Shown in pieces: positions 34,664 through 60,588 of a stretch of 64,000 bases of DNA. The stretch is taken from positions 640,001 to 704,000 of the forward strand of contig OX638351.1 of assembly GCA_951813565.1 (NCBI GenBank), given 5' to 3'. Below the pieces are notes generated by a model. That model saw only the letters and a program-made list of their open reading frames with translations, made no database searches and was not told the DNA's origin. The DNA comes from an uncultured Poribacteria bacterium. Lineage in GTDB: Bacteria; Poribacteria; WGA-4E; WGA-3G. Numbering within the stretch: position 1 is the first letter of the stretch; each line of letters begins with the position of its first letter. Made by a program: the position numbers and the translations under genes.

Positions 34664-34768
34664 GACAAATGCCATACGGGGAATGCCAAAAGGCATTCAT
34701 ACCCGGTGAATGACTAAATGTCATTCATACCGTTGATTTCTTGATTTGGCGCATTTGGCGTTGATTTG
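34664..34768 (+). repeat. Three-layer nested hairpin-GTTGATTTG mini-element inside REP CGCCCC|GCTGGGGC
   Basis: Removing the 105 nt restores CGCCCCGCTGGGGC, which is seen intact near 34607. Confidence 0.8.
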
Positions 34769-35066
34769 GCTGGGGCTGCTCTTATTTGCCATGAGGATCT
34801 TTTTCTGCGAGTTACGTCCCCGTGAAAAACTCAGCGAAAAATGAGAAATACTTGAAAACAGATCATGAAATAGTAGTTCGTCCGTCGGGTAGAGCTTGCG
34901 AAACCCGACAATATAAAGGTTTCAAGGCAAACTGGGCGGGTTTCACAAGGAAATCGTAGGAACACATCAAGCAGGTTGTGATAATAGTATTTCAGTCCCA
35001 ACATGTCGGGTTTCGCATTCGCTCTACCCATAGGTGTAAACTTAAGGATATATCCTCTTGTGGGAG

Positions 35067-35149
35067 TGAATCAACGCCAAATGCACTTTTTGGCATTTGG
35101 CGGGTTTTCAACCCCGCAGCATGCCATACGCGCATGCTGCGTTGATTTG
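35067..35149. repeat. Two mini-elements (35067-35101 reverse; 35116-35149 forward) in one REP hairpin
   Basis: AATCAAC-GCCAAATGC..GCATTTGGC and GCAGCATGC..GCATGCTGC-GTTGATTTG. Confidence 0.75.
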
Positions 35150-35449
35150 GATTTTCTGCTTGAATCTCGTTTAATCGGGCGGACAAGGTTTCCCTCCCAC
35201 AAGAGATAATTTAGCAATTTTGTTCTTAAATTGACACTCGCTGAAGAGCGTTTGACATATTCAGAATATACCTAACAAGAAATTACCGAATTAAAAAATT
35301 AATCTTCATTTAGTTTGTGCCTTATGAGACGCAAACTAAAAGTTTGCGCTACAGAAGTGTCCCATTAATTATAGGTTTTACTATAGTTTTAATTCGTGTT
35401 TTTTCAAAGTAGGTACGGTTGAAAAACGCACCCGAATAAGATTGGTAAT

Positions 35450-36310
35450 TTAGGTTGGAAGCGTTGCGTGCGCTGTTACATGTAGAGGTAAGAAGAACGG
35501 GCGTTTTGATGTAAGGACTTCATGGCGGAGTTGTGCTGCTAATGTATCAACACCAACCTGTTCCGCTGTCGCAATCCCGTACTTTTCAATAAGTGGAAGG
35601 AGACTCTGAAAAATAGTTGCCATGTATCGGTACCCTACCCAATTCGCTGCTGCACCGATGGGAGCATGAAGGTGCATCTTTGGTGCTGGCAATCCTACTT
35701 CAACAAAAACACGGTAAAGCCCTATACCCGTGTCCAGATGCGCTCCTGAATGTTTGAATACATCCAAAATCCACTGGTAAAGTTGATTGATAAAGGGTGT
35801 ATCTGGATGTGAATACGCTGGATAGAGTGTGTATTCCGGCTCCTGAAACGCAACAATTCCTCCCGGTTTTAGATGCTTTACGAGTTTTTGCAGCGCATCC
35901 ACGGGGTTAGCCAAATACATTAACACAAACCGACCAACAAGCGCATCAAATTTGTCATCAAGTTCAAGTGTTCGTGCGTCACCTGCGATGAATTCGACGT
36001 TTTTCATACCTGCGTCTGATGCGCGTTGACGCGCCGTTTCAAGGATAGACGGATTGATATCAACGCCAACTACTTGTCCTGATGTGCCAACAAGTTCAGC
36101 AAGCATGAGAGCCGCATCGCCAGCACCGCTACCGATTTCAAGCACCCGCATCCCAGTTCCAATACCCGCACGTTCGCAGAGCAGCCTCGTTGACTCTCCA
36201 TAGATTCTTGACTGCTCAATGAGGCGCGTTGTTTCGTGTGAGGTTCGCCCTAAGGTATAGGTTGCATCGCGATTTGATGCGTGCGAGTTTTGTGAATGAT
36301 TTTCTGCCAT
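35450..36310 (-). CDS. Class I SAM-dependent methyltransferase
   Basis: GMRVLEIGSGAGD; FDALVGRFVLMY; LKPGGIVAFQE. Confidence 0.92.
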   Translation of the reverse strand: MAENHSQNSHASNRDATYTLGRTSHETTRLIEQSRIYGESTRLLCERAGIGTGMRVLEIGSGAGDAALMLAELVGTSGQVVGVDINPSILETARQRASDAGMKNVEFIAGDARTLELDDKFDALVGRFVLMYLANPVDALQKLVKHLKPGGIVAFQEPEYTLYPAYSHPDTPFINQLYQWILDVFKHSGAHLDTGIGLYRVFVEVGLPAPKMHLHAPIGAAANWVGYRYMATIFQSLLPLIEKYGIATAEQVGVDTLAAQLRHEVLTSKRPFFLPLHVTAHATLPT

Positions 36311-36321
36311 GCGTTGAACTT

Positions 36322-37158
36322 TTAAGTTGGGAGGGATGCATGTGCTGTGACGTGTGGGGGCAGCATAATCGGGCGTTTTGATGCAGCGACTTCTGCTTGT
36401 ATCCGAGATGCAAGCGTGTCTATGTCTACCTCATCAGTAGTCGCAATTTCGTAAGCCTCTATTAACGGTAGGATACTCCGAAAACTATTTTCGAGATATG
36501 CAAATCCGGGCCAATCTTCAGGACCGCCCATGGGCGCTTCAAAATGTAATGCGGGTTCGGGCAAACCAGCATCAACGAAGGCTTTGTAGAGTTCCATACC
36601 CATTTCTACATGTGCGCCAGAACGTTCAAACACGGTGCGCCCCCATTTAATTAAGTCGTTTATCAAAGGTGTATCTGGATGTACAGCAACAGCATAAGGT
36701 GAAAAATCAACCTCTTGGAAAGCAACAATGCCACCGGGATGTAGGTGCGTTGCCAAATGTTTAAGCGCATCTGCTGGGTCTGCCATATACATCAGCACAA
36801 GTCTGCCGACAACGGCATCAAAATCGTTTGGAAGTTCAAGTGTTCGGGTGTCACCTGCGATGAATTCTATGTTTGTCCAACCTGCTGCGTCCGCACGTGC
36901 TTTTGCTGTTTCAAGAATATCAGCGTTAACATCTACACCAATCACAGTTCCCTCGGCACCAACAAATTCTGCAAGGGTAAGCGCAACGTCCCCAGCACCA
37001 CTCCCCACATCAAGGACTTTCATGCCTTTTGCGATGCCGCTCCTCAGAAAAAAACGCCGCGTCACATCCTCATAGAGTTGAGACTGTTTAATCAACCGGT
37101 CTGTTTCAGATTCGCTCCTACCCATTGTATATTCTGCATCTCTGCTTTGATTGCTCAT
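36322..37158 (-). CDS. Class I SAM-dependent methyltransferase (paralog; start at MSNQSRD)
   Basis: GMKVLDVGSGAGD; FDAVVGRLVLMY. Confidence 0.92.
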   Translation of the reverse strand: MSNQSRDAEYTMGRSESETDRLIKQSQLYEDVTRRFFLRSGIAKGMKVLDVGSGAGDVALTLAEFVGAEGTVIGVDVNADILETAKARADAAGWTNIEFIAGDTRTLELPNDFDAVVGRLVLMYMADPADALKHLATHLHPGGIVAFQEVDFSPYAVAVHPDTPLINDLIKWGRTVFERSGAHVEMGMELYKAFVDAGLPEPALHFEAPMGGPEDWPGFAYLENSFRSILPLIEAYEIATTDEVDIDTLASRIQAEVAASKRPIMLPPHVTAHASLPT

Positions 37159-37289
37159 GTAAATTTTTTCCCCTTTAAAAATAAAAAAGCAAGACATCAA
37201 CAGTGGAGTGTCCACGTATTTTAGATTTTACTATTATTTGGTATGTGTTAGAGAGCGGTTTGAAGCCGTTCCTAACAAGAAACAAAACT

Positions 37290-39902
37290 TTAGAAAGTAT
37301 AACCGATTTTGGTGTACCAGAAAGCACCACCAAACCCGTAAGGACTATATTCACCGAAGGGTCTACCGACTATAGCACCCGTAAAGTTCTCAATATTTGG
37401 GTCTGACCAAGTAACGTTATTAGGTTCAACATTGAAAACATTATTGACGCCAACCGTTATACCTAAGTTATTAGCAAAGGCGTAATTAAATTCAATATCC
37501 ACTAAAAACACGTCGTCATAAATTTGTGAACCGACAGCATATTCGAACCAAGGTCCGTAGTAATTAACACGCCCCAAAACTCCTAAATTACCTACAACAT
37601 TTTGTGTTAACGTTACGTTTCCGCGGTGCTTGGGTAGCCCTTCTTCTAAGAGTCGGACACGTGTGTCGTCCAAAATATCAGCGTTGCGTTTGGTAACTTC
37701 AGTCTCGGTGTAGTTATAAGCAAGACTTACGACACCTTTAGCGACTGGTGCTGTAAGAACAATGTCAAGACCTTGTGTGCTTGTTTCAAATTCGTTAGTA
37801 AAGAATCGGAATTCTTGCAGGTTTCCGGCACTCGTGATGCCTTCATCAACGAGTTGCTGGATCTGTTCTTCAGTAATATCTTCGCCGCGTAGGAAGTCTT
37901 TAGAGGGCGCCAACCGATCTTCTACCTTGATATTGAAATAATCTATTGTAACACTAACAACATCATCACTAATAACCGTGCCAACAGTAAAGTTTTTTGA
38001 CTTTTCGGGTTCAAGTGCCTTACCACCTACTAAGCCTGCGGCAGCATGCGTAGAAGGAATAGTGCCTTTATTGACCAAGGTATTATTTTCACCGAATTCC
38101 GTTGTGACGTTAAAGGCATTTTGCTGCCCGGGCGTCGGTGCACGAAAACCGGTGCTGTAACTACCACGTACTCTCATGTCAATCGCAGGATCAAGCGAAA
38201 GAAATTCCATGAGGTCGTCGCTGAATGCATAACTTGTTGCGACTTTGTAGTTGATAGTACTACCAAAATCATCAAAATACTCGCCTCGGATAGCAGCGCT
38301 AACAACCCATGGCTCAATCGGTTTCAATTCGGTTTCCAAATATCCTGCAAAATTGGAACGTGTCCAATCGCCTTGCGCAATATCACTGAAGCCAGGAAAT
38401 CCGTTGGAACCCGAACTAAATCCTTGGCTTGCCAATGGCCCAATTTCCCAAGACTCTTTTTGCCCTTGAACAATTTCAAAAGTCTCTGTTCTATATTCAC
38501 CACCTGCGGCAAGAAAGACAAGGTCGTGCAGTGGATAGGTGAGGTCAAGATTAATGTTCGTATCCGCTTGGATATAATCACCCGGGTCGAATTCGGTAGG
38601 TGTATCTGGTCCAAGTGATGCATTCACAGTGTTTTTAATGAAGAAATCAGAGGCGTGGCGTCCATAAGATGCACTTAAATCCCATCCCAAATCCTCAGCG
38701 ACTGATCCTTTCAGTCCAACAAGGACAGAAGCATCTTGTGTATCAGCACCGAAACGAGGTGTGAATCCACCGGGAAAAAGTTCTTGGAAAGTAAAAAGGT
38801 TCGGGTCATCAAAAACCTGTTTTAAAGCCTCTGGGTCTGGAACATTATCGGTTATCTGAACCACAGGAACTTCACCTTCTCCAGACAAACGCCCAACAAG
38901 TAATGTTTCGCCACTGTCGTTACTAAATACGGCAGGTCGAGTATTGGGATTTCGGAAGTAGAACCCACCCTCAACTTGCTTCTGCGCGTAGTTTGCGTGA
39001 CCGTAGAGTTGAATGTTACTAACGATGTCAACTCCGTAGTTTGCAAAAAACTTAATGTCATCCCTAATAATCGGGTGTCCCCACGGTTGTGCGGGGTTGG
39101 CAACATGGCTATTCCCGGCGGCGGAAAGTGCGGCGGCATCGTCTCGTTGCACGGAACGATCTGTCTCGTCAGTGTTACCGTATTCTAAACTGAGGTTTGC
39201 CCATACATCTTCTCTTCCCAAACCGATATTCCCGGCGACGGAATATGTGAGACCGTCACTAAATTGGTATATACCGGGTTTAATTACCAAAGATCCGCCT
39301 TTGTAACTGTCTTTTAATTGTAAGTTCATCACACCGGCGATAGCATCGGAACCATACTGTGCGGATGCACCATCCCGTAACACTTCCATCTGTTTAATTG
39401 CAATCGCAGGAATAGGCGATAGGTCTGCACCTTGCGAACCATCGGACAATCCGTTGCCAAGCCAAGTAATCACAGATGCGCGGTGCCGACGTTTGCCGTT
39501 GACGAGTAACAATGTGTGATCGGGTGCTAATCCCCTTAGATTTGCAGGACGCACGACGGTCGCTGCATCGGCGATAGGTTGTGCATTTACATTGTAGGAG
39601 GGCACCAAATTCCTCAACAAGTCAGGCATATCTGCCCCACCCTGTTTAACAAAATCATCGCTGAGCACGACATCAATCGGAACAGTCGACTCAAGCACGG
39701 AACGCGGTTTGGCACGTGTGCCGACAATAACCAAACCTTCAAGTTCCACGACTTCTTGATCAGATTCTGCTTCGCTTGATTCAGTTTCAGTATCGCTTTC
39801 TTCATGGTTATCTGCTACAACCACAGGTAAGAAGACCATGAAAACTGCTAATGCTATGTAAAATGCATGAACAAGCGGTTTAATATTAATTGTACCTTTC
39901 AT
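37290..39902 (-). CDS. TonB-dependent outer-membrane receptor (start at MKGTIN)
   Basis: Plug 'LRGLAPDHTLLLVNGKRRH', 'EVLRDGASAQYGSDAIAGV'; C-terminal ..IGYTF. Confidence 0.95.
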   Translation of the reverse strand: MKGTINIKPLVHAFYIALAVFMVFLPVVVADNHEESDTETESSEAESDQEVVELEGLVIVGTRAKPRSVLESTVPIDVVLSDDFVKQGGADMPDLLRNLVPSYNVNAQPIADAATVVRPANLRGLAPDHTLLLVNGKRRHRASVITWLGNGLSDGSQGADLSPIPAIAIKQMEVLRDGASAQYGSDAIAGVMNLQLKDSYKGGSLVIKPGIYQFSDGLTYSVAGNIGLGREDVWANLSLEYGNTDETDRSVQRDDAAALSAAGNSHVANPAQPWGHPIIRDDIKFFANYGVDIVSNIQLYGHANYAQKQVEGGFYFRNPNTRPAVFSNDSGETLLVGRLSGEGEVPVVQITDNVPDPEALKQVFDDPNLFTFQELFPGGFTPRFGADTQDASVLVGLKGSVAEDLGWDLSASYGRHASDFFIKNTVNASLGPDTPTEFDPGDYIQADTNINLDLTYPLHDLVFLAAGGEYRTETFEIVQGQKESWEIGPLASQGFSSGSNGFPGFSDIAQGDWTRSNFAGYLETELKPIEPWVVSAAIRGEYFDDFGSTINYKVATSYAFSDDLMEFLSLDPAIDMRVRGSYSTGFRAPTPGQQNAFNVTTEFGENNTLVNKGTIPSTHAAAGLVGGKALEPEKSKNFTVGTVISDDVVSVTIDYFNIKVEDRLAPSKDFLRGEDITEEQIQQLVDEGITSAGNLQEFRFFTNEFETSTQGLDIVLTAPVAKGVVSLAYNYTETEVTKRNADILDDTRVRLLEEGLPKHRGNVTLTQNVVGNLGVLGRVNYYGPWFEYAVGSQIYDDVFLVDIEFNYAFANNLGITVGVNNVFNVEPNNVTWSDPNIENFTGAIVGRPFGEYSPYGFGGAFWYTKIGYTF

Positions 39903-39961
39903 AATTTGCTCTCTCTTTTTGTATGAAAAATACTTATGCGACAACGGCACTTATAAAGTTT

Positions 39962-40015
39962 GGTAGACGTGAATTGCCCGCTTTTGTAGAAAGCAGGTTT
40001 ACAAACACGTCTACC
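39962..40015. terminator. Stem-loop between the two receptor genes
   Basis: GGTAGACGTG...CACGTCTACC arms. Confidence 0.5.
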
Positions 40016-40032
40016 GAGTTTTTGTTACATAT

Positions 40033-42729
40033 TTAGAAACTGTAACCGACTTTAGCATACCAGAATGCGCCATCAAACCCAAACGGACTGAATTGTCCGT
40101 ATTTGTTACCAACAGAATCAGCAGCATTCGGATTTTCATCGGGATAGGTATTAAGGATATTTCTTCCACCGAGAGTGAGAGACAATCCGGACTCCACGGT
40201 GTAAGTGGTTTCCAAGTCGAAAATAACCCTTCCAGTGTATTCTCCAGTCTCTTCTACATCTGGATTCTGTAAGAAATCTTCAGAATCGAACCAACCGCTG
40301 AAATAACTGGCGCGCCCGAGCACTCCCCACATATCCGTTATGGATTGAGCGACAGTCAGGCTGGCGCGGTGTTCTGGTAAATTCTCTTGCAGTTCCCTGA
40401 TTCGACGATCGTCCAGCGTGTCAGGATTGTAATCGCCAACCTCAGTTGACGTGAAGTTATACACGGCGATGAGGTTTCCGTTGGGTATTGGTGCTGTAAC
40501 GACAAAGTCAACACCTTGGGTTGTGGTATTGAAATCATTGATAAAGAACCGGAATTTTTCCAGATTCGCTGCACTGGTTACACCTTCGGCGATGAGCTGC
40601 GCCTTCTGCGAGGCAGTCAATGTAAAGTCTTGTGAGACAGATAACCGGTTTTTCAGCCGAATATCAAAAAAGTCCATCGTGAAATTTACGCCCAAAATAT
40701 CAACGGTAAATCCACCTGTGAAGTTATTTGATGTTTCCGGGTCAAGCGAGTTATCTTCCTTGCCTGTCACAACACCAACAGCGGCGTTGGTAGAAGGAAT
40801 TGTTCCGTTATTAACGAGGTCACCCTTCTCAAAATCGTATTCAGTGGTAATGTTAAACGTATTTTGCTGCCCGGGTGTCGGTGCGCGGAACCCAGTACTA
40901 TAACTTCCCCGCAACCGCATCGTTTCCGTAATCTTGTAGTTTGCAGCGGCTTTGTAGTTCAGGGTACTACCGAAATCCTCAAATTGTTCACCGCGCACAG
41001 CCAGCGCGATCAGGAGCGGATCAATCGGTCTGATTTCAGTTTCCAGATACGCCGCAACGTTGTAACGGTGCCACTTGCCTGCCGCAACTGGGCTGAACCC
41101 CGAAAATCCGTTGGAGGCAGCCGTGAAGCCTTGCGCTGCGAGGGGCCCGATCTGATGCGACTCGCGTTCGCCCTCTATGATTTCAAAACCTTCGTTCCGA
41201 TATTCCAAACCAGAAGCGAGGAACACCAGGTCGTTCAACGGATAGGTTACATCGAAGTTGAGGTAATAATCCGTCTGGATATAGTCGCCCGGATCAAAAT
41301 GTGTCGGTGTATCTGGGCCGAGCGAAGCATTAACAGTGTTGAAGATAAAGAAATCAGCATGGTTCCGTCCAAAAGTGCCGCTTAGATCCCACGTTAAGTC
41401 CTTGCCCAAGGTGTCTCCGAGCGCGGTGCCTTTAACGCCAATGACGACGGAACTATCCCACATGAATGCACCAAATCTGGGTGTGAATCCGCCTGGGAAC
41501 ATTTCTTGATACGAGAACAAATTGGGATCCTTAATAACCTCTTGCATCTTAGCAGGATCTGCTGGGACACCATTAGCAATTGCTGTACGCTCCTCATCAG
41601 TGGTGGCAGTTACTGCTCCAGTGACAGGATGGGCAAGTTGAATATCGTCGGCCTCTTTATCCACCCCTTCTGGCAAGCCTGCTAAATTACCAACGAGTAA
41701 GTAGAATTCATCTGGCTTATCATCATCATCTAAATCCACATTACGTCCAAACACGCCACTGCGAGTATTGGGGTTCCGGAAATAGAACCCACCTTCAACG
41801 CGCTTTCGGGCGTAGTTGGCATGCCCATAGAAATCGATGGTATCCGTGAGGGTAGCACCGTAGTTGGCAAACAATTTGGTGTCACCCTCTATAATCGGCT
41901 GTCCCCAAATTTGCGCGGGGTCTTTCACACTGAAATTGCCTGCGTTAATCAAGTTCATCGCATCAGTGCGTTGCACAGAACGGATGGTCGGATCTGCGCC
42001 ACCGTATTCAAAACTGAGGCTAGTCCACGCGTCTAGTGTGCCTAAACCGATATTGCCAGCGAGCGCGAATTGCCTACCGTCGCCGTATTGGTAGATACCG
42101 GGTTTAAATTCAAACGAACCGCCTTCGTGGTTGTCTTTCAATTGAAAATTCATCACCCCAGCAATGGCATCAGAACCGTATTGTGCAGATGCTCCATCTC
42201 GGAGGACCTCAACTTGTCTCAGCGCGATTGCCGGAATAGGCGACAGATCAGGCCCCTGTGAACCATCAGATAAACCGTTCCCGAGCCAGTGAATCACTGA
42301 GGCACGGTGTCGCCGCTTGTTATTGACCAGTACCAGCGTATGATCTGGGGCAAGCCCCCGTAAATTCGCTGGACGCACCACCGTTGACGCATCACTAATC
42401 GGTTGTGTATTGATGTTGTAAGATGGCACTAAAGTTCTCAGCAAATCCGGTAGATCTGCGCCGCCCTGCTTTTCAAAGGATTTGTTTGACACAACATCAA
42501 TCGGGACCGCTGAATCCAAGATAGAACGCGGTCTTGCCCGGGTACCGACGACCACTACGCTTTCAATTTCGACTACATCTTGTTCAGAGGCAGCTTCCTC
42601 GGTAGATTCAGCCTCAGGTTCTTCTGTGTTTTCTTCTTGTGCTACTGCGGCAGGTAAATAAACCATAAAAACTGCTAAAGCGATGAACATCGCAAGCAGA
42701 ATTGTCTTAATAATCAATGTGACTTTCAT
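40033..42729 (-). CDS. TonB-dependent outer-membrane receptor (paralog)
   Basis: Same plug motifs; C-terminal ..VGYSF. Confidence 0.95.
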   Translation of the reverse strand: MKVTLIIKTILLAMFIALAVFMVYLPAAVAQEENTEEPEAESTEEAASEQDVVEIESVVVVGTRARPRSILDSAVPIDVVSNKSFEKQGGADLPDLLRTLVPSYNINTQPISDASTVVRPANLRGLAPDHTLVLVNNKRRHRASVIHWLGNGLSDGSQGPDLSPIPAIALRQVEVLRDGASAQYGSDAIAGVMNFQLKDNHEGGSFEFKPGIYQYGDGRQFALAGNIGLGTLDAWTSLSFEYGGADPTIRSVQRTDAMNLINAGNFSVKDPAQIWGQPIIEGDTKLFANYGATLTDTIDFYGHANYARKRVEGGFYFRNPNTRSGVFGRNVDLDDDDKPDEFYLLVGNLAGLPEGVDKEADDIQLAHPVTGAVTATTDEERTAIANGVPADPAKMQEVIKDPNLFSYQEMFPGGFTPRFGAFMWDSSVVIGVKGTALGDTLGKDLTWDLSGTFGRNHADFFIFNTVNASLGPDTPTHFDPGDYIQTDYYLNFDVTYPLNDLVFLASGLEYRNEGFEIIEGERESHQIGPLAAQGFTAASNGFSGFSPVAAGKWHRYNVAAYLETEIRPIDPLLIALAVRGEQFEDFGSTLNYKAAANYKITETMRLRGSYSTGFRAPTPGQQNTFNITTEYDFEKGDLVNNGTIPSTNAAVGVVTGKEDNSLDPETSNNFTGGFTVDILGVNFTMDFFDIRLKNRLSVSQDFTLTASQKAQLIAEGVTSAANLEKFRFFINDFNTTTQGVDFVVTAPIPNGNLIAVYNFTSTEVGDYNPDTLDDRRIRELQENLPEHRASLTVAQSITDMWGVLGRASYFSGWFDSEDFLQNPDVEETGEYTGRVIFDLETTYTVESGLSLTLGGRNILNTYPDENPNAADSVGNKYGQFSPFGFDGAFWYAKVGYSF

Positions 42730-42842
42730 ATAATTTAGACTCCTTAGGTCTTTTTTCTTTTTTAGTAAGTAACATTTTCACATAAAACGTAAAAAAAACG
42801 CAACAGGTTTAGACTTTTCCCTGAATAATATTATTTCTTTAG

Positions 42843-42863
42843 ACTTGAAAACACGTCTCAAGT
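42843..42863. promoter_or_regulatory. Candidate Fur-family operator
   Basis: Imperfect palindrome ACTTGAAAACACGTCTCAAGT between divergent TBDR and ZIP genes. Confidence 0.4.
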
Positions 42864-46255: not shown

Positions 46256-46436
46256 TGCAGTCCACCATCTCATAAATCAATGGGTGTTCCGCAAATGCCC
46301 GCTAATTTGGCGTTGATTTGAACATGGTAGCAGGCACGCTCCGCGTGCCGTAGCGGGTTACGGTATACGGAGTATGTCTACTACTTTGCACTATCTCGTA
46401 GATTGGGTTTCACCTACGCTTTATCCAACCTACGAA

Positions 46437-50165: not shown

Positions 50166-50616
50166 CAGAAAAGGGATCAGATTACCGAATTAATAACTTA
50201 ATCTTCATGAAAACGCGCTTACCTTTGGGTAATAAATCCAAATCAACGCTGAATGCGCGTTTAGGCATTCAGCGGGCTTACAAAACCCTCCCATAAGAGG
50301 TAATTCAGTAATTATGTGCTTAAATTGACAGTTATGGGTAGAGTGCAAGCAAAACCTACCAAATCAACGCTGAATACGAGTTCGGATTCCGGGCCAAACC
50401 ATATTCAGTGCTAACAGGGATATTTAACCATTTCTCACATGTACTTGTTACGTTGATTTGGCGTTGATTACGCGCAGCATTGCCCAAACCCGATAGGTGC
50501 GGTTAGAAACAGCGCCTACCAAGGTAGAACAGCATCGGCGCGGGGAAACCCTGAAACTCCCCTACAATGTTAAATAAGACGTGATGCCAAATTAACACCG
50601 ATACCCTTAATATGTA

Positions 50617-50773
50617 CAGGACTTACGCAATTTTCATGATTTTTGCAATAATTACGGTTAAAATAGCGTAATTTTTAGCAGAGTTCTGAACTATGGCGCT
50701 TTTACAAAACGCCAAATCAACGGTCCGAATGCCATTTAGGCATTCCCCGCCTACCGCGTGTGCGTAAGCCCTG
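50617..50773. mobile_element. MITE, TIR CAGGACTTACGCA, 5-bp TSD ATGTA
   Basis: ATGTA at 50612-50616 and 50774-50778; related unit at 34106-34259. Confidence 0.8.
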
Positions 50774-51107
50774 ATGTAATAAATTGTTGGGTTTCCGGTT
50801 GTTCCAACTAACTTATACCATTTCTAAATTATAACTTCCCATTTACAAAAAACGCGTTTAATGTGAATGTCGGACGCACATTCACCAAGCGCAATTCATT
50901 GCGCCTCGGACATTCAACATAAGATAAGTTTCAAAATCTCATAGAATCTTCGTAATGGTATTTTATTTATTAGAATTGGTATTATAGACTATTGATCGGT
51001 ACGCTTAGGAAAACATACCTACCGTTGTCTTATATCTTAATATGTTAACATATACCTTAATTTTTATCAAGCTTTTTACATTATAAATGGTATGTGCATA
51101 ATTATTC

Positions 51108-51452
51108 GAGGGGTGTGCATAAATAATTCCGATGTTAAATATGCGCTTAAAGGTAGTCCGCACACGCCGTGGGTTTCCATCCACAAGTTCAAAGAGGCGC
51201 AGCATGCCACACGGGGAATGCCATAAGGCATTCGGACCCGGTGAATGACTAAAGACGAATGCGCTTGGTAGAATACGCTTTTGGTATTCTACATGATTCG
51301 CCATGATTCATACCGTTGATTTCTTGATTTGGCGCATGCTGCGTTGATTTGGCAATAAATTGCGCGACTACAAACGCATTGCTATAAATCAAGCGGCACC
51401 TGGCGTCTGTCCTTGTCTGTGTTGATACGCCAAATATTTATGCACACCCCTC
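51108..51452. mobile_element. MITE, TIR GAGGGGTGTGCATAAATA, 8-bp TSD AATTATTC (IS256/Mutator-like)
   Basis: TSD at 51100-51107 and 51453-51460. Confidence 0.85.
51199..51351 (+). repeat. Five-layer nested hairpin mini-element (153 nt) inside REP GAGGC|GCAATAAATTGCGCGACTAC
   Basis: Near-identical copies at 57928-58088 (reverse) and 60436-60588. Confidence 0.85.
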
Positions 51453-52352: not shown

Positions 52353-52381
52353 TTGACTTATAACGTATATTATTATACAAT
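52353..52381 (+). promoter_or_regulatory. Sigma-70-like promoter
   Basis: TTGACT-N17-TACAAT. Confidence 0.55.
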
Positions 52382-52980
52382 ATGTCATATAATTCATTTT
52401 AAGACATATAAAATGAATTATATTAATAAAAATTAGAAACTTTATTTGATTTAAATTTAGTTTTATGTTAGAATTAATGTCGGTTCAATATGAGACTTCA
52501 AGTGCGGAATAGTGATCCAAACCTGTATACACATATAAAATAGGTGTTGGTAAGTACACACAACATAGACAGACCGATATATTCCACTACGAAGTCCCAT
52601 TCTTATTTATTAATTTTAAGACAATAAAAATTTAATTTGATATTATATAAGTTTTAACTTATAATTAATATATTGGAAGATGCAGATGTTGTTTTCATCT
52701 GCACCGGACAATGTAGGTTTAAATATCTTGTGGATTGAAGCAAAGAAGTCCCATTCGTAAAAGTCAATGTTTCACGCAAGATGCAAGGAAAACAATTGGT
52801 AACCACAATATAGGTTAAATGGATAGATGTGGTGTCAATTGAGATAGGTAAACAGGTAACCCTGTTTTTTACACAATATTAATACACAATATTAATATTT
52901 AGATTGGAAGATTAGATTAACAGGATTTAATTCCCTGAATCTTAACTTGAATTTAATATTTCTAAAAGGAGAAATAAGTA

Positions 52981-55900
52981 ATGCGATTGTCAAATAAATC
53001 GACATTTTCCTTAGCAAGTTTAATTTTGCTGTTGGCACTTGGGGTTGTCTTTGGAACTACCTTTGTGATGGCACATGCTCCAGATGATACTACTGTAGGT
53101 CCACATACTCACCCAGTAACGGAGGCAGTTGCGGAAGACACCAGTGCCACTCCCCCTGTGCTACCAGTTCCCCTACATAATACGCACCCAGTGCCAGTTA
53201 TTACGTTAAGGAGTGGTCAGCCTAATGTCCGAGGCAATATGATAGCGCTTGACGCTACTACTAATACTACTTTTACCTTAATCGTTGATTACGGTACAGA
53301 TGTAACTGATACTGCCACTAATACTGATACTACTGGTGTTGCGGATGACGATCTAAGCATCGCTGATGCTGCTCATGCAACACTGCAAGTTGACAGCACA
53401 GCGGCTACGGATGCAACTTTAGCTATCACGCGTGTCGGTAGCAGTGATTCTATGTTTCGGGTAGTAGTAACTCCCGGACTTTATCCGAATGCCGACACGG
53501 CAGCCACAGCTACGAACGATGACACCTTGATGTTCAGAATACAATTACCAGCGGGAGACTTGTTTAGTCTGCAAACAACAGAGGTTGTAGGAACTGCTGT
53601 TGATCCAGTGACTGTCCCTGGTGGTGAAAGTTTAGCATCAGCTCTTTATACTTTTACGTTGGTTGATGTGTTGCCTCCACCCGAACCTGACACCACAGTT
53701 CCAGTGGTATCTATTGGTACTCCTACTTTTGATGCTGGAAAAGGTCAAGTGACGTTCACAATCACGGTTACTGAAGCGAATCCTGGTACGGATGCTGGCG
53801 ATGGACTTTCACTTTCTGACACCACTTCCGGGGTTACAAATGGAAGTGTTGTAGACTTTGCTGATAATAATGATGGGACTTATACGGTGCTGGTTGTGCC
53901 AACTGACGCTGCTATGCCAGTTTCATTGTCGATTGCTGCCGGGGCAGTAGTAGATGCGTCTGATAATAGTTCTGGTGCTGTTGAAGCTGTGACTTGGACA
54001 CCAACAGGTTACACACCGCCAGTAATTCCAAAAGTGACGTTTACCTCTACAGGTAGTGCGACAATTGGTGAAGCGTTTGCTGTAACGCTCGGTAATGCCG
54101 ATACCACAATGATGCTTGCTGATCTTAATATAGGACTTTCCGATATTACGGTCACCCAAACAGCAACTGATGGTACCGCAAGTGTTCTTGCACGTACTTA
54201 TAATGGTACAACAGGCGTTGTGACATTCACCCCAACTGCAGCGGGGACAGTAAAAGTTGCTGCTACAGTTAACGGACAGACAGATGAATCAGTCGCTATT
54301 ACAGTCGTAATGGCAGCCCGCGTCCCTGTTGCTGTGACTGCTACACCATCAGCAACTGCAGTGAATGGTAGCACCCCTATTGTCGTGACGTTAAGTGCTA
54401 CGGCTCCGGCTATGGTTCCATCAGACTTAGAGGCTGCTGATTTCACCGTCATGGAAGGCAGCATTGCCTTGAATGCTGTAGTGAATGTTGGTGCAGTAAC
54501 TGGTACAGTCAGCTTAACCATTACACCTGCTGGTACTGGAAACACAATTGTTACAGTGGCGCCGTCCACAACAGGTATCGCAAAGGTTCGTTTTGCCCAA
54601 GTATCAATCATGGTTGACCGCACAGCACCTACGATAGAGTTTAGTCTCTTAACAAGAGACGCGAAGGCGGATGTAGCTGTTCAGGTGGGAATCACAGTTT
54701 TCGGTACTGATGACGCACTTGCTGTTGGTGATATTAATGTAGTACAAACTGTCAATGGAAGTTTCGAGTCTCTTGAACATACTTATATTGCTGCTCCAAG
54801 CGTGGTAACGTTTACACCAAATGCTATGTCCACGGTTGTTGTTAGCGTTGACGCAGATGCCGTAATGGATGCCGTTGGAAATGGGAACGCTGCGGCAAAT
54901 TCAGGTGATATTGCTGTCGCCGCCGCAGACCTTGTTGATTCCACAGCGCCCACAGCGACTATTATAGGCGGACAACGTACAGAGCGTGCATTTGAAGTAA
55001 CCATCACCTTTAACGAAGCACTAAAAGCGGGTGAAACCCTGACCGCTGATGAAATCACGGTTACAAATGGCTCCATTGCTAATGTCGCTGAACATACAAC
55101 GAGATCAAACGCCTTCACAGGTACGGTTACACCAGACCACGGTGTTAGAAGTGTAACAATTCAGGTCAACGCAGGTGCAGTGAAAGACGCATCTGATAAT
55201 GCAAATGCTGCAACGCCTGCAACGGCTCATGCTATCACGGTGAGAAGCACCTCCGTACCATTTGATCCACCACCTAGCGCAGCGAGTAAGCTGGAAGGGC
55301 TTGTTATTCCCGGGAAGAGTTTTGTGCTTTTGACGCGTGCGAATTCCGAGGGATTGCCAGCGGTATTGCCTTCAAACGCTTCTATGGTCGTGTGGGCTGA
55401 TATGCCGGATATTGAAGCGTTATTCTATAGTGGTGGTTCTATAAACATAACTGTTTCGGGCGTTGGGAACCGAAGTGTTCTCTTCACTGAATTTATGTGG
55501 GCAAGGAACCTTGCTAAAATTGGTCAAACTGGTGAATTAGCGCATCAATGGATTGAAATTTACAACAATAACGATGATCCTGTAACCGCAACAGTGGAGA
55601 CCAAAGCTGGCCGTCCAGCACTTGCGCATGGCACTGATCGTGTCAGTAACGTTGTAGGTGCTGGTTGGAAACTTGAAGATTTAGGTCAGAACGGTTCTGA
55701 TGATGGTGAAGGTGGCAGTGCCGAGGTCGATTTCGTTTCTATGTATAAAGTAGATAAAAGCGCAGGCGACAAAGATGGTTCTATCAAAGGCCATTGGGGA
55801 GTCTCCAGCGAAGTCTATTTTGCCCTTCATAAAGGCACACCAGGGAAATTTGAACGTAGTGGTGTTGGTACTATCGGTGCAACGTCCTTTAATGTTGGCC

Positions 55901-57672
55901 CAATCATCTTCAACGAGATTGCGAATAGAAATAATAGTGATAAAGCTTACGAATGGATTGAACTTCGCAACAAATCTGGTGGCGAAGTAAATCTCAAAAA
56001 CTGGCAAATTAGTATCGTGACGGCTGTCGGTCAAGATAACGTGTTCTATGACTTCCCGGATGCGGACCGTAAAGTTCCCGCAGGTGGTCTGCTCTTGTTG
56101 GTTGATACCGATCCAGCGAACGATCCGAACCACCCGTTGCAAACTGGATGGAACATTACAAAGAATGCCGCGAACCAAGTCAACGGTGTCGGTGCACATT
56201 CACCACGCTACATGGTTGCAGACTTCAAAGATGATGGCCTGCCAGACGATGGTAAATTCGTGTTGATTCTGCGGAACCGTAAAGACAAACGTGGTATAGC
56301 AGAACACTTGATTGACATCGCTGGTTATGATGACGATTTGAAGGTTTCAGCTGAAGATGCTGGTTTCACAAACCTCTGGCCCCTTAAAGGTGGTGTCCGT
56401 GATGCCCAACTTAGCAATAACAAGTTGGAAGTGAATCAAGTTCACCGTCGCCAGAAGGATAGTATCTGGGGAACAAGTTCTACCAACTACGGTAGAAACG
56501 GTGGAAACCATGGTGATGATACCGCATGGCGCGGTGTTGGTTGGACAAGTGTCGGCTACAAACGGAATGCTGCGCGGAATAGCGCACACGGTGGGACACC
56601 TGGATTCCCGAATGGCGCGATTAAAAGCGATGGTGGCGATGCGATAGCAGCACTTGTTATCAGTGAAATTATGCTCGATACCAGTCGGAACTTACCACAG
56701 TGGGTCGAAATTCAGAATCTCTCCAGTAGTATTGGGGTTAATTTGAATAACGCTTCACTCTTTATCGTCAACCATCACTTGAAAGCTGATGGCACCGACT
56801 ATACTGAAGGTAAATTGTCCGAACGAATCAACATTGATAACATGGAGATTCCACCGAACCAAACGGCGTTGGTTGTTTCAACTGGTGCTCGCAGCTACAC
56901 CAACCTTCCGAATGAACGTGTTTGGAATCTACGTAGAGGTCGTGGTGAAACACTGCTGAACCCGAACGGTTTCCAGATTACACTCAAGTTAAAAACTAAT
57001 GAAGGTGATGCTAATAAGCACCAGACTGCTGATGTTGTTGGTAACCTTCCCGATGCACCAGCAGGCAGTCGTCCTGATGAACAGTCCTACTTGGATGCAC
57101 TCTGGGATTGGCCGGCTGGAACGGATGCAAACGGTAACCGCGTTTCTGTCGCACGGAAAACTTCTACCAAGATTATGACGCTTGATGGAAGAAGTGCTGG
57201 GCATTGGTTATCTTCTATGGATGATCCACGGTTGAGTTTGATCCGTGAACAAACGTATTATGGACATTCTAACGATGTCTCTTCACCGGGACAAACCATT
57301 GGTGCAGCGTTGCCAGTCAACTTGTCATCCTTCCGTCCAACACTGGAAGACGGCAAAGTCGTTATCCACTGGACAACCGAATCCGAACTTGACAACGCTG
57401 GATTTAATATCCTTCGTAGTGAAACTCGGAACGGTGAATACAAGCAGGTCAATTCTGAACTGATTGCTGGACATGGCACTACAGGTGAACGCCACACTTA
57501 CAAGTGGGTTGACCAAACCGCCAAGCCTGGTGTCGTTTACTACTACCAAATTGAAGACGTATCTTTCGCCGGTGAGCATCAAGTGCTTGCTGTAACCAAA
57601 TTGAAAGGTTTGATCTCGGCGAAAGACAAACTTACAACGACGTGGAGTGAGCTAAAACAAGCTTCACAATAG
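52981..57672 (+). CDS. 1563-aa secreted/surface protein: T/A/V-rich Ig-like repeats, three lamin-tail-like domains, C-terminal KLTTTW motif
   Basis: Signal peptide; FTEFMW..QWIEIYN, FNEIAN..EWIELRN, ISEIM..QWVEIQN; LPVNLSSF..WTTESELDNAGFNI; ISAKDKLTTTWSELK. Confidence 0.85.
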   Translation: MRLSNKSTFSLASLILLLALGVVFGTTFVMAHAPDDTTVGPHTHPVTEAVAEDTSATPPVLPVPLHNTHPVPVITLRSGQPNVRGNMIALDATTNTTFTLIVDYGTDVTDTATNTDTTGVADDDLSIADAAHATLQVDSTAATDATLAITRVGSSDSMFRVVVTPGLYPNADTAATATNDDTLMFRIQLPAGDLFSLQTTEVVGTAVDPVTVPGGESLASALYTFTLVDVLPPPEPDTTVPVVSIGTPTFDAGKGQVTFTITVTEANPGTDAGDGLSLSDTTSGVTNGSVVDFADNNDGTYTVLVVPTDAAMPVSLSIAAGAVVDASDNSSGAVEAVTWTPTGYTPPVIPKVTFTSTGSATIGEAFAVTLGNADTTMMLADLNIGLSDITVTQTATDGTASVLARTYNGTTGVVTFTPTAAGTVKVAATVNGQTDESVAITVVMAARVPVAVTATPSATAVNGSTPIVVTLSATAPAMVPSDLEAADFTVMEGSIALNAVVNVGAVTGTVSLTITPAGTGNTIVTVAPSTTGIAKVRFAQVSIMVDRTAPTIEFSLLTRDAKADVAVQVGITVFGTDDALAVGDINVVQTVNGSFESLEHTYIAAPSVVTFTPNAMSTVVVSVDADAVMDAVGNGNAAANSGDIAVAAADLVDSTAPTATIIGGQRTERAFEVTITFNEALKAGETLTADEITVTNGSIANVAEHTTRSNAFTGTVTPDHGVRSVTIQVNAGAVKDASDNANAATPATAHAITVRSTSVPFDPPPSAASKLEGLVIPGKSFVLLTRANSEGLPAVLPSNASMVVWADMPDIEALFYSGGSINITVSGVGNRSVLFTEFMWARNLAKIGQTGELAHQWIEIYNNNDDPVTATVETKAGRPALAHGTDRVSNVVGAGWKLEDLGQNGSDDGEGGSAEVDFVSMYKVDKSAGDKDGSIKGHWGVSSEVYFALHKGTPGKFERSGVGTIGATSFNVGPIIFNEIANRNNSDKAYEWIELRNKSGGEVNLKNWQISIVTAVGQDNVFYDFPDADRKVPAGGLLLLVDTDPANDPNHPLQTGWNITKNAANQVNGVGAHSPRYMVADFKDDGLPDDGKFVLILRNRKDKRGIAEHLIDIAGYDDDLKVSAEDAGFTNLWPLKGGVRDAQLSNNKLEVNQVHRRQKDSIWGTSSTNYGRNGGNHGDDTAWRGVGWTSVGYKRNAARNSAHGGTPGFPNGAIKSDGGDAIAALVISEIMLDTSRNLPQWVEIQNLSSSIGVNLNNASLFIVNHHLKADGTDYTEGKLSERINIDNMEIPPNQTALVVSTGARSYTNLPNERVWNLRRGRGETLLNPNGFQITLKLKTNEGDANKHQTADVVGNLPDAPAGSRPDEQSYLDALWDWPAGTDANGNRVSVARKTSTKIMTLDGRSAGHWLSSMDDPRLSLIREQTYYGHSNDVSSPGQTIGAALPVNLSSFRPTLEDGKVVIHWTTESELDNAGFNILRSETRNGEYKQVNSELIAGHGTTGERHTYKWVDQTAKPGVVYYYQIEDVSFAGEHQVLAVTKLKGLISAKDKLTTTWSELKQASQ

Positions 57673-57847
57673 GGTTAAATTCAGGGATATTTAACCATTT
57701 TCTCCTCACAATAAGGAATCTGCAGAATCCTTATTGAAGGAAAATCTTTCTAAAAAACTATTCCCATTTAGGAGGCTGTTGCAATATTCCGGTGCGGCAG
57801 TTTCCTAACGGAATAGTAAACTAACTAACCTATCCAACTAACCTATC

Positions 57848-57890
57848 TCAAACAGGGAACTTGCGCCCGCAAGTTCCCTGTTTGAACTTT
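57848..57890 (+). terminator. Intrinsic terminator
   Basis: TCAAACAGGGAACTTGC-GCCC-GCAAGTTCCCTGTTTGA then ACTTTT. Confidence 0.75.
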
Positions 57891-57927
57891 TAACGACAAA
57901 AAACCGCGTCTAATCGCAATTCATTGC

Positions 57928-58088
57928 CAAATCAACGCAGCATGCGCCAAATCAAGAAATCAAGAAATCAACGGTATGAATCATGGCGAATCATGTAGAA
58001 TACCAAAAGCGTATTCTACCAAGCGCATTCGTCTTTAGTCATTCACCGGGTCCGAATGCCTTATGGCATTCCCCGTGTGGCATGCTGC
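57928..58088 (-). repeat. Nested hairpin mini-element (161 nt, extra 8-nt slip) inside REP CGCAATTCATTGC|GCCTC
   Basis: Reverse complement of 51199-51351 plus one extra AAGAAATC. Confidence 0.85.
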
Positions 58089-58238
58089 GCCTCTTATATT
58101 TTCTAATTGAATGTAGGGCGGGGTCTCTGTGCCCCGCCACTGCTGATGTATCTAAACGTGGCATGCTGCGCCTCTTATATTTTCTAATTGAATGTAGGGC
58201 GGGGTCTCTGTGCCCCGCCACTGCTGATGTACCTAAAC
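58077..58238. repeat. 81-bp tandem duplication including a GTAG REP
   Basis: GTGGCATGCTGCGCCTC...GATGTAyCTAAAC present twice. Confidence 0.9.
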
Positions 58239-58438
58239 AACGGGCGGACACAGAGACCCTCCCCTACAATAAGGGTGAGGTTTGTAGGTTGTATTTAATA
58301 GCGTCCAACCTGAAATAAATCCTTAAATTGACGCCTATGGTAGAGCTTGCGAAACCCGACGGACGATATAAGCTTTCCGTAACACGCATTAACTAATAAT
58401 TCTTAAAACTAAATAGCTCTGCTCAAAAACAGAAAAAC

Positions 58439-58467
58439 TTGACAATTCTGTAAAAACCCTTTAAAAT
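58439..58467 (+). promoter_or_regulatory. Sigma-70 promoter of ggt
   Basis: TTGACA-N17-TAAAAT. Confidence 0.7.
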
Positions 58468-58501
58468 TCTAACTATTAGTCTTCAGCGAAAGGAAAACGC
58501 T

Positions 58502-60103
58502 GTGAATTTACACAAAAGAGACTACGGGACAGTTGTTGGCCCACACCCCCGTACTGCACAGGCAGGTTTTGATATGCTCCTCACAGGAGGGAATGCCGTG
58601 GATGCCGCTGTTGCCGCTGCCTTTGCAGAAGGAGTCGTGGAACCCTCACAAAATGGAATCGCGGGCTACGGCGGTTGTGTGCTAATCTATCGAAAGAAAA
58701 CACAAGATGTCGTAGCGATAGATTACAATTCTGCTGCACCAGCAGCTGCATCAGAAGATATGTTTACAATTGAGGAAGCTCCAGATACGCCTGCAGGATA
58801 CCGTGTTCCTGGACGCGTTAACGTTCACGGACCGCTATCTATTGGTGTGCCAGGGGTTGTTGCGGGATTATGTTTAGCGTTGGAGGAGTATGGTAGTCTT
58901 CCGCTCGTGGATGTGCTACGTCCGGCTATTAATTCTGCACGTTATGGTTATGCCCCTAATGCCTCAAACTGTGGTGGAATCGCCGGAAATGCAGAAAGGT
59001 GGAAAAGAGAGTTTCCAGAAACGGCACGGGTTTTCCTCAAAGATGGACGACCACCAAAAAAGGGGGAAGTGCTTACCAACCCTGATCTTGCACGCACTCT
59101 GGAGGCTGTTTCAGAAGGTGGGCGCACAGCTTTTTACGAAGGGAAAATAGCAGAAACAATCGCGAACCACATTCAGGAATTAGGTGGATGTTTAACCGTT
59201 GATGATCTAAAAAATTACCGTGCCTTCATTACAAAACCTTATGAAATTCAGTATCGCGGCTATTCGGTCTATACTGCACCTCTCGGAGCAGGCGGACTAA
59301 CCACTTTACAGATGCTCCGTTTGGTTGAGGGATTTGATGTAACGTCTATGTCTCTTACCGAGAGATTCCATCTTTTTGCTGAAGCGATGAAGGTTTGCTG
59401 GCCCGAAAGGCTCCGGCGATTTGGAGATCCGAATTTTGTTGCTATAGATATAGCAGAAGAACTGTCGGATAGTTTCACAGCAACACTCAGCAAAAAGTTG
59501 AAGGCAGGACTTGAATCGCCCCAACGGGGTGAGGTAGTCTATCACGAACCGATGAATTGCACAAGTCATATTTCCACTGCTGATGCGGAGGGAAATATGG
59601 TATCATTGACACAGACACACGGTGGCGGATTCGGTTCAATGGTAACGGTGCCTGACACTGGACTACTTTTTGGACACGGTGTTGGTCGTTTCGATCCGAG
59701 ACCGGGGCTTGCAAACTCTGTCGGTCCGGGTAAACGTCCGTTGCATAATATGGGTCCATGCCTTGCCACGCGAGACGGCATGCCTTTCTCGACCTACGGT
59801 ATCCCTGGCGGTCGTACTATCCCAAACAATCAATTAAATATCAGCGTTAGCCTTATTGATTTGCAAGTGTCCGCGCAAGCAGCGTTGGGTGCGCCACGAT
59901 TTCACAGCGATGGTGCTGAACCGATCCAAATCGAATCACGCGCAGGTGAAGAAACACTTGCTGGGTTGCGAGAACTTGGACATGAAATCACTGCAAGTGG
60001 TGGTATCGGCGGCCCGGGACATGCTATTCGCCTATCAAACGATGGAACTTGCCACGATGGCGGCACGGATCCACGTGGAGAAGGTAAAGTCATAGGACGT
60101 TGA
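58502..60103 (+). CDS. ggt: Gamma-glutamyltransferase family protein
   Basis: GGNAVDAAVAAA, GIAGYGG, catalytic Thr in NC-TSHIST, PGKRP, DPRG. Confidence 0.93.
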   Translation: MNLHKRDYGTVVGPHPRTAQAGFDMLLTGGNAVDAAVAAAFAEGVVEPSQNGIAGYGGCVLIYRKKTQDVVAIDYNSAAPAAASEDMFTIEEAPDTPAGYRVPGRVNVHGPLSIGVPGVVAGLCLALEEYGSLPLVDVLRPAINSARYGYAPNASNCGGIAGNAERWKREFPETARVFLKDGRPPKKGEVLTNPDLARTLEAVSEGGRTAFYEGKIAETIANHIQELGGCLTVDDLKNYRAFITKPYEIQYRGYSVYTAPLGAGGLTTLQMLRLVEGFDVTSMSLTERFHLFAEAMKVCWPERLRRFGDPNFVAIDIAEELSDSFTATLSKKLKAGLESPQRGEVVYHEPMNCTSHISTADAEGNMVSLTQTHGGGFGSMVTVPDTGLLFGHGVGRFDPRPGLANSVGPGKRPLHNMGPCLATRDGMPFSTYGIPGGRTIPNNQLNISVSLIDLQVSAQAALGAPRFHSDGAEPIQIESRAGEETLAGLRELGHEITASGGIGGPGHAIRLSNDGTCHDGGTDPRGEGKVIGR

Positions 60104-60350
60104 TATTTCCATTCAATGGGTACACGTCCATAGAATGGTAAAAGGGATCGGGAATCTCGATTCATAATCTATGGTGAGGTATAAAAAAGTAGGCACTCGC
60201 TGTAGGCGCGATTTGTAAACGTGCTGATCACAGCGTATAGTTAATTGTAAATCTAACGTGTTGTGCTAAATACTTATTTGTAAAATATTGTTTCACAATT
60301 ACATGACGTTTTGTTAGTTTTTATCATTAGTTGATTCCTTCTTCAGTCCC

Positions 60351-60384
60351 GACAAATGCCATAAGCACATTTGACGTTGATTTG
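60351..60384 (+). repeat. Single 34-nt hairpin-GTTGATTTG mini-element inside GTCCC|GTAGGGAC
   Basis: GACAAATGCCATAAGCACATTTGAC-GTTGATTTG. Confidence 0.8.
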
Positions 60385-60435
60385 GTAGGGACGATATGTT
60401 TATAGAAAAACGTTGAACACCCTATCTTTAGCCCC

Positions 60436-60588
60436 GCCAAATGCCATACGGGGAATGCCAAAAGGCATTCATACCCGGTGAATGACTAAAGACGAATGCG
60501 CTTGGTAGAATACGCTTTTGGTATTCTACATGATTCGCCATGATTCATACCGTTGATTTCTTGATTTGGCGCATTTGGCGTTGATTTG
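60436..60588 (+). repeat. Five-layer nested mini-element (153 nt) inside GCCCC|GTAGGGAC
   Basis: Inner layers match 51199-51351; outer layer is the GCCAAATGC variant. Confidence 0.85.

Follow-up and report, generated by a model that had tools for sequence, protein, structure and literature searches.

How a sequence of about 35 nt comes to lie, again and again, inside the hairpins of other repeats is the question raised by a 64 kb stretch of DNA (contig OX638351.1, positions 640,001 to 704,000; hereafter, the window) from the genome of an uncultured member of the Poribacteria, which was analysed here as a single contig of 5.43 Mb. The sequences in question, referred to below as units, consist of a short hairpin followed by a GTTGATT tail and are mostly embedded in repetitive extragenic palindromes (REPs). 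A preliminary description of the window took them for a minimal non-autonomous element inserted by an HUH-type enzyme, without base loss, at C/G dinucleotides of host palindromes (the slash denotes a junction throughout). The boundaries and junctions analysed here support a minimal non-coding element that generates no target duplication, but do not support clean HUH-type insertion across the family as a whole. The unit is a genus-restricted micro-element that is present in multiple copies, nested and in tandem, with both empty and filled alleles; its tails are inherited, and the tail predicts the next target base. In what follows, genomes carry G-numbers (G000 is the genome of the window) and loci carry L-numbers.

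The unit is composed of an invariant C, a hairpin of 25-27 nt, the heptamer GTTGATT and two variable bases, 33-36 nt overall; the hairpin has either a 9-bp stem (type A) or a bulged stem (type B). The window contains 11 occurrences of the motif GTTGATTTG, compared to a mean of 1.26 expected by chance (maximum 4; 0 of 100 shuffles reach 11), and the whole genome contains 649, of which 550 are preceded by C and 562 followed by G. An iterative parser recovered 608 units in the genome (444 type A and 164 type B, including 43 that are exposed only once an inner unit is removed), compared to 2 and 1 in two block-shuffled genomes; a looser count yields 870 tails in 449 clusters. The constancy of the tail postulated in the preliminary description holds for GTTGATT but not for the last two bases, which are TG in 370 of the 608 units, CA in 111, CG in 37, TC in 32, CC in 21, TA in 17, CT in 13 and other combinations in 7. 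A C precedes the hairpin in 458 of the 608 units, and 115 of the remainder adjoin the tail of another unit in tandem arrays; this flanking C forms a pair with the G that opens the tail, extending the stem to 10 bp (folding z of -4.1 for the unit at 35116..35149). Among the 78 distinct type A stems, multi-copy variants carry both-sided changes at pairs 3, 4, 5 and 8, and pair 2 tolerates A.G. On the hairpin-then-tail strand, 34 G.T pairs stand against 16 A.C pairs (p 0.015), an excess that weakly favours this strand as the one that folds. Although open reading frames (ORFs) of at least 160 aa cover 80% of the genome, only 10 of the 608 units lie inside them, and an Rfam scan of the window detected no match to the unit, the only matches being two tRNA genes (11417-11580, minus strand).

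The element is enriched in one genus of sponge-symbiont Poribacteria. A 17-nt pattern is found in 35 of 36 genomes of this genus and in none of 24 genomes from other families, and the 11-mer CGTTGATTTGG is present in 13 to 519 copies in all 40 genus genomes and in at most 24 copies in 136 other genomes of the phylum, with the counts in five genus genomes overlapping this phylum background. Among the 80 matches to the unit pattern listed from a genome collection (at least 116 were found), 72 are titled Poribacteria and one more match, in a further bacterium, is a true unit. Other taxa contribute the remaining seven, six of which pair at no more than 6 of 9 stem positions; the seventh, a single copy without the left C, pairs at 8 of 9. 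Viral contigs yielded no unit matches.

The last two bases of the tail are tightly linked to the base that follows the unit: TG is followed by G in 358 of 370 cases, CA by C in 98 of 111 and TC by T in 32 of 32. For the TG class, the main one, the C/G rule proposed from the window is confirmed by the genome-wide scan. Most of these units behave as clean 34-36-nt insertions at C/G, with an exact empty 18-mer for 48 of the 122 distinct contexts; when the right end is moved by one base, 1 and 4 empty 18-mers are found, and none when it is moved by two or three. The left-flank 3-mers of the 122 contexts include CCC (61) as well as TAC, GGC, TCC and GAC, with only the C fixed. All eight insertions named in the preliminary description are present where it placed them, with the flanks that it gave. 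Deletion of the insert restores the host in seven of them, the 14-nt junction being found uninterrupted elsewhere in the genome (3 copies for the insertion at 34664, 15 for 35116, 32 for 50239, 18 for 50713, 23 for 51199, 87 for 57928 and 5 for 60351), and the empty host reported near 26488 is there. The eighth, at 60436, has no exact and five one-mismatch copies of the 18-mer, so that its host is a one-base variant rather than an intact palindrome. Base-precise insertion at C/G extends to coding DNA of insertion sequences (ISs): two units (G000:3913161 and 4876791) interrupt genes whose empty counterpart is L107. A further unit in IS coding DNA, in L123, has empty homologues at G000:362869 and L108 (all these genes were called transposases from their sequence and copy number).

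Outside the TG class, and for some TG units as well, simple deletion does not restore the host. We compared filled and empty junctions at 15 host sites that we picked from the filled copies. The left side of the filled sites is nearly always CC, with C present irrespective of the base of the empty site; the empty sites are mostly CT, or CG at the unit's own tail site, or CA. In the GTCCC host, the empty form is CTA in 19 of 21 copies and the filled form is CC..CA in both of two; in the GTTCCCTC host, CTA is found in 21 empty copies, CCA is not among the five commonest empty forms, and all 10 filled copies read CC..CA; in the GGCGGGTCT host, 61 of 63 empty copies have CT and 16 of 16 filled copies have CC..TG. 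The unit's own tail site is CG in 136 of 136 empty cases and CC..TC in 29 of 29 filled ones, which comprise 11 hairpin variants, and the same tail-site nesting is repeated in G034. Altogether, 11 of the 15 sites have lost target bases in G000. At ACAC the T is retained, and at AAAAC there is a clean gain of two bases; TCGCTC is ambiguous owing to a CCA variant (25 copies against 247 with CTA in G000), and filled copies of TCAACC come from relatives only. One TCGCTC case is settled in favour of base loss by an orthologous pair, in which L104 of G006 carries the unit and L091 of G012 has TA at the empty site (81% identity over 2288 nt; the orthologous locus in G000 is filled too), and base loss is also seen in paralogue pairs with 96.6-98% identity over 175-230 nt, in which TA or CT is replaced (long-flank matches were obtained for 43 of 199; several align to other filled copies, and only rows with an empty junction were used).

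These junctions can be summarized as a replacement in which C, the core and two bases are swapped for 1-3 target bases, counting the left C position, the commonest loss being that of the T in CC-T. Ten of the 15 host sites have a C-T step whose T is the first base to go missing (binomial p 0.0085 against 1/3, for hosts chosen after seeing them). In many cases the target does not contain the final base of the tail, which hence is supplied by the donor. Two other rules were considered and rejected: CpG deamination as the origin of the tail variants is ruled out by the TG units being one base longer, and a flipped-base rule, under which the tail would end in the complement of the missing base, accommodates four junction types but breaks down with CT tails and with TG tails at CT hosts.

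The base loss bears directly on the simplest enzymatic explanation, a clean cut-and-join by a Y1 transposase. Such an enzyme would bind the folded unit and cut it at C/G and after the tail, and the resulting dumbbell circle of 34-36 nt would be joined at a C/G target, with the missing bases attributed to later repair or to host variants; we regard this as unlikely. The base precision of the TG class, including the copies in IS coding DNA, the lack of target duplications, the good folding of the unit as single-stranded DNA and the REP-like appearance of the opposite strand, with a fixed motif 5' of the hairpin, all speak for it. However, strand transfer cannot drop target bases, as happened at 11 of the 15 sites and in the orthologous pair. 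HUH strand transfer joins cut ends losslessly (PMC8266576). This fits the TG class and not the replaced bases. If the replacement rule mirrors the mechanism, the latter would not be plain HUH strand transfer.

Copying into a nick, with short matches at both ends, may well explain the element, although we would stop short of calling this explanation probable. A folded single strand of a donor copy, together with one or two bases of its old flank, would be patched into a single-stranded target at a nick, or copied into it; on the left, the join would form through a match of C or CC, and on the right through a match of one to a few bases with the right flank of the donor, and the target bases lying between the two matches would be lost. 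A copying rule of this kind would cover both junction classes as well as the preference for sites similar to the old ones, the unit's own ends included. The nick would most likely be supplied by resident REP-associated HUH enzymes, the REP-associated tyrosine transposases (RAYTs), acting on host hairpins; host replication or repair would perform the copying, and RAYT-driven spread of the filled REPs would then multiply the copies. The tested RAYTs described in PMC8266576 cut C/T and CA, as well as CC, GA and GT with mutated guides, and the first loss of the T of a C-T step at most of the host sites, combined with RAYT cutting at this step, makes the resident RAYTs the likeliest source of the nick.

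Each insertion rebuilds C/G on its left, which would account for the nesting and for the observed arrays of up to nine units, whose 5' members carry TG. In one array (G000:C1:3536331-3536645), an identical 35-nt unit is repeated nine times in head-to-tail order, as could result from slippage or from a rolling-circle multimer; in G034, about ten type B units with differing loops lie inside one REP (L113:17902-18280), next to TC-type nesting, and the differences between the loops suggest successive insertions rather than slippage alone. Single hairpins with an inverted tail on each side (G000:C1:502436, 1083202, 1460147 and 1868826, and L083:9793) probably derive from the collapse of two opposed units. 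At some chimeric sites, the left flank comes from one host REP and the right flank from another, suggesting recombination between filled sites.

The hosts belong to many REP families, several of which have their own flanked Y1 gene in G000 or in relatives. The suggestion that the unit parasitizes other REPs is supported for most of the hosts but not for the copies in IS transposase genes. A fixed position within the host hairpin was rejected, as 55 sites are spread over stems, loops and feet; the surroundings of these sites fold better (median -5.1 kcal/mol) than random intergenic CG sites (-2.7 kcal/mol). We consider the mobility of the element highly probable. Passive spread, in which a few old insertions propagated together with their host REPs via slippage and gene conversion, appears very unlikely: many identical composite contexts, the chimeric flanks and the presence of the units in three same-species runs are what it predicts, but the units occupy dozens of unrelated hosts on both strands, interrupt IS coding DNA with empty homologues, form multi-level nests with different hairpins and share a sharp boundary. 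The contigs of these runs carry the units at 50179-50841 (X4) and 50250-50841 (X7 and X9). The comparison of empty and filled alleles called for in the preliminary description gave an empty orthologue and empty paralogues within the genus but no empty allele in four same-species runs. The orthologous intergenic regions of relatives around 60351-60588 are without the whole REP cluster and hence are silent on the unit alone. Upstream of a gamma-glutamyltransferase gene in G017 (L073), a REP and nested units are contained in a larger element with inverted ends ATAGTAAAATCC and GGATTTTACTAT, which is missing from the orthologous spacers L071, L072 and L076.

No mobilizing Y1 enzyme is encoded in the window, as had been anticipated: the ten matches to PF01797 in G000 all lie elsewhere and comprise five IS605 TnpA, two IS200-like TnpA (one broken) and three RAYTs (one broken). 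At L007 and L009, the gene of one IS200-like TnpA is frameshifted and that of one RAYT contains an in-frame TAG. The two intact RAYTs, the intact IS200-like TnpA and the IS605 TnpAs are enzymes on which clean cut-and-join could draw. Against it, the Y1 genes whose flanks were read (10 loci in G000 and 49 in relatives) are bordered by REPs or IS ends of their own, and a unit occurs there at most as an insertion into a host REP, so that the expectation of a Y1 or RAYT gene flanked by the motif as its own repeat was not borne out among these loci; a custom Y1 profile run on the six frames of G000 added no further gene; and PF01797 is present in 36 of the 40 genus genomes and missing from four. 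A RAYT query matched 30 of 39 genus genomes and 59 of 65 sister-genus genomes. Genus genomes with a close RAYT have a median of 113 copies, compared to 46.5 in the others (20 and 20 genomes, p 0.002).

An RNA intermediate with target-primed reverse transcription, whereby the tail of a transcript would pair with a nicked target and the cDNA would jump to the left flank, would account for the short end matches, the small losses, the variable 3' ends and the one-strand G.T bias. This route nevertheless seems most improbable, given that RVT_1 was detected in just 18 of the 40 genus genomes, and in none of the high-copy genomes G034, G006, G061 and G012, that the two reverse transcriptases of G000 are DRT4-like and CRISPR-type (L013), and that the unit has no Rfam match. 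The DRT4-like enzyme is a 511-aa protein encoded at L012:1066-2601 (G000:C1:811749-813284; PADLOC Drt4 match, E 9e-157).

A further candidate is an unrecognized recombinase or a host enzyme of Poribacteria, other than Y1, reverse transcriptase or IS110, which would use short overlaps that need no match and move the unit along with other micro-elements. The presence of the motif in all 40 genus genomes, including those without Y1 or reverse transcriptase, and the compatibility of the +34 junction types with an exchange of two-base overlaps are in line with this proposal; we nonetheless deem it improbable because no candidate enzyme emerged and because the +33 and +32 junctions do not fit conservative exchange. 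The DEDD recombinase of IS110 was detected in none of the 40 genus genomes, nor in G000 with a second model, and a tyrosine recombinase profile gave one match in G000. IS607 is present in 4 of 5 genomes, with local ends unlike those of the unit; the three near-identical copies in G000, each with a serine TnpA and TnpB and a GG core, are located at C1:1648981-1650758, 2156512-2158291 and 3269995-3271772, and IS607 requires an invariant GG target (PMC6188088). Ku was found in 0 of 5 genomes, as was the Y2 enzyme of IS91 with a profile whose control was also silent; G000 contains one IscB gene. No autonomous long form was seen among the tails without a near left arm or the inverted tail pairs that were examined; the 30 ORFs (some of them spurious) with units on either side include no obvious mobility gene, as judged by the first residues alone; and a Pfam scan of 10 of the 79 window ORFs detected no mobility enzyme.

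Several observations weigh against copying into a nick made by RAYTs. None of the enzyme families searched (Y1, reverse transcriptase, IS110, IS607, Ku and, with a silent control, IS91) tracks the distribution of the element; G001 and G023, with about 100 copies each, have no PF01797 or RAYT match; and in the sister genus, RAYTs are common and motif counts are near background. The link between RAYTs and copy number is expected from RAYT action and from passive spread inside REPs alike, and is confounded by kinship. C/G is not among the RAYT cuts in the accessible part of PMC8266576, and most TG units are equally compatible with clean strand transfer. The CA units at TCGCTC could in part be clean insertions into the CCA variant, the right-hand match is defined partly from the product and is to that extent circular, and the stem covariation could stem from self-correction of the hairpin rather than selection. 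Furthermore, copies cannot be equated with insertion events, since a single host context is often common to many of them and some of the rules therefore rest on few origins. Finally, none of the joints listed for the four same-species runs (15 of 93) is a site-specific empty allele, and the contigs of these runs show presence only.

The closest known systems are REPs with their RAYTs and the small dispersed repeats (SDRs) of Nostoc, for which no mobilizing enzyme is known. Elhai et al. (2008, Genome Res 18:1484) reportedly described SDR1-8 in Nostocaceae as repeats of 21-27 nt with a shared structure that nest within themselves. Going by the traits attributed to SDRs, the unit resembles them in its length (below 40 nt), its dispersal, its insertion into other repeats as well as into copies of itself, and its conserved structure. 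It differs from the SDRs, as far as the descriptions go, in its greater length (33-36 nt), phylum, fixed GTTGATT tail, inherited tails and replacement of target bases. SDRs insert precisely into other repeated motifs, SDR5 between bases 3 and 4 of HIP1 (PMC4390886), and none of the listed hosts of the unit is HIP1; the Nostoc SDR repeats are also mentioned in PMC3116915. Like REPs and their compound forms, bacterial interspersed mosaic elements (BIMEs) and REP doublets forming hairpins (REPINs), the unit is a short, palindromic, extragenic single-strand hairpin with hundreds of copies, a fixed motif at the foot of the stem and no target duplication, and some REP families also sit inside other palindromes (PMC8266576, PMC3733652, PMC3116915 and PMC6006769). 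Unlike GTAG-REPs, which are among its hosts, the unit has GTTGATT 3' of the stem (AATCAAC 5' on the other strand) with no GTAG or CGTC tag, forms no doublet of REP and inverted REP, flanks no RAYT and joins mainly at C/G rather than C/T. In its behaviour, the unit is akin to the Nostoc SDRs and to a REP for which other REPs serve as landing sites.

The similarity to derivatives of IS200/IS605 lies in the single-strand hairpin, the strand-specific ends and the lack of target duplication, but the unit has one hairpin rather than two ends and no fixed left target of 4-5 nt, as opposed to IS608 and ISDra2. PATE-type elements are non-autonomous derivatives of IS200/IS605. The link to ISDra2 through its target motif TTGAT, drawn in the preliminary description, is not supported: TTGAT is internal to the unit, at a distance of 3 bases from the 3' end, and is absent from the targets, and the local IS605 elements follow TTAG or TTAA, with left ends and one right end that differ from those of the unit. 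Helitrons and IS91 share with the unit a hairpin followed by a short 3' tail, a 5' junction that rebuilds the target dinucleotide and the lack of duplication; the unit, however, is only about 35 nt long and target bases are lost. It differs from IS607 in targeting CG, CT and other dinucleotides with no invariant GG core and in having ends unrelated to the three local copies, from IS110/IS1111 in that no DEDD recombinase was found in the carriers (0 of 40), and from miniature elements of the terminal inverted repeat type in being asymmetric and free of duplications, the few double-tailed hairpins sitting among opposed units.

A literature search found no description of the element, subscription papers being mostly outside its reach. 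It is possible, albeit rather doubtful when all parts are taken together, that this is an element of about 35 nt whose target choice is set by bases carried over from its last site, and which is copied into a nick by end matches, overwriting the intervening bases, and encodes no enzyme itself. If so, it would represent a route of mobility outside cut-and-join transposition and retrotransposition, possibly common to the Nostoc SDRs, and would offer a handle on the spread of REP-like repeats, the mechanism of which is described as poorly understood in PMC8266576. The family combines several inherited tail types and a defined substrate of 35 nt with hundreds of junctions formed in nature for which empty alleles exist, so that the way in which tiny repeats spread becomes open to testing; what specialists would most likely find surprising is the replacement rule.

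The copies in the window are listed in Table 1. Insertions of 105-161 nt, originally described as single copies of one design, are nests of 3-6 units of two families. Of the three copies considered weak, those at 46290 and 50360 are decayed but the one at 35067 is intact; its host site is represented in the genome by 44 empty CC copies and 22 filled copies.

Table 1. Units, nests and related features of the window (positions in the 64 kb window)
Feature	Position	Strand	Details
Uninterrupted host repeat of the 50239 unit	26488..26507	+	
Nest of three units in CGCCCC/GCTGGGG REP	34664..34768	+	Outer type A unit is 34664-34677 and 34749-34768
Type B unit inside the loop of the outer type A unit	34678-34703 and 34741-34748	+	Part of the 34664..34768 nest
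TC-tailed unit	34704-34740	+	Replaced the first G of the type B tail in the 34664..34768 nest
Intact CA-tailed type A unit	35067..35101	-	26-nt hairpin + GTTGATTCA; invariant C at 35102
Simple TG-tailed type A unit, 34 nt	35116..35149	+	At CCCC/G
Decayed TG-tailed type A unit	46290..46320	+	No empty junction found in the genome
Simple TG-tailed type A unit, 35 nt	50239..50273	-	At AAGCCC/GATTT
Decayed unit	50360..50395	-	3' arm and TG tail kept, hairpin gone
Tail motif without hairpin	50452..50460	+	Membership uncertain
Simple type B unit, bulged hairpin, 36 nt	50713..50748	-	At GTAGGC/GCG
Five-unit nest	51199..51351	+	At GAGGC/GCAAT; type A, type B from 51213, TC-tailed unit 51239-51323, two ATGATT-family units
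Second-family units (hairpin + C-ATGATT)	51254..51308	+	Copy at 51268-51298 within another
The 51199..51351 nest in opposite orientation	57928..58088	-	One additional TTGATTTC
Simple TG-tailed type A unit	60351..60384	+	At GTCCC/GTAGGGAC; L082 has the empty form of the same composite
Five-unit nest in variant host	60436..60588	+	Host GCCCC/GTAGGGAC; ATGATT-family units at 60491-60545

The second micro-family, a hairpin followed by C-ATGATT, has 92 copies in the genome, those of the window being located at 51254-51308, 57979-58033 and 60491-60545; its copies lie within the arms of other units, and the right join appears to share the ATT of the host arm. A 111-aa ORF (57983-58318) that runs through nested units has no Pfam match and is likely to be spurious. 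A separate repeat of about 165 nt with inverted ends (AAGTTGCTAC and GTAGCAACTT), found at G000:C1:6000-6180 and in about nine other places, holds CGTTGATTCT without a hairpin and is probably unrelated to the unit.

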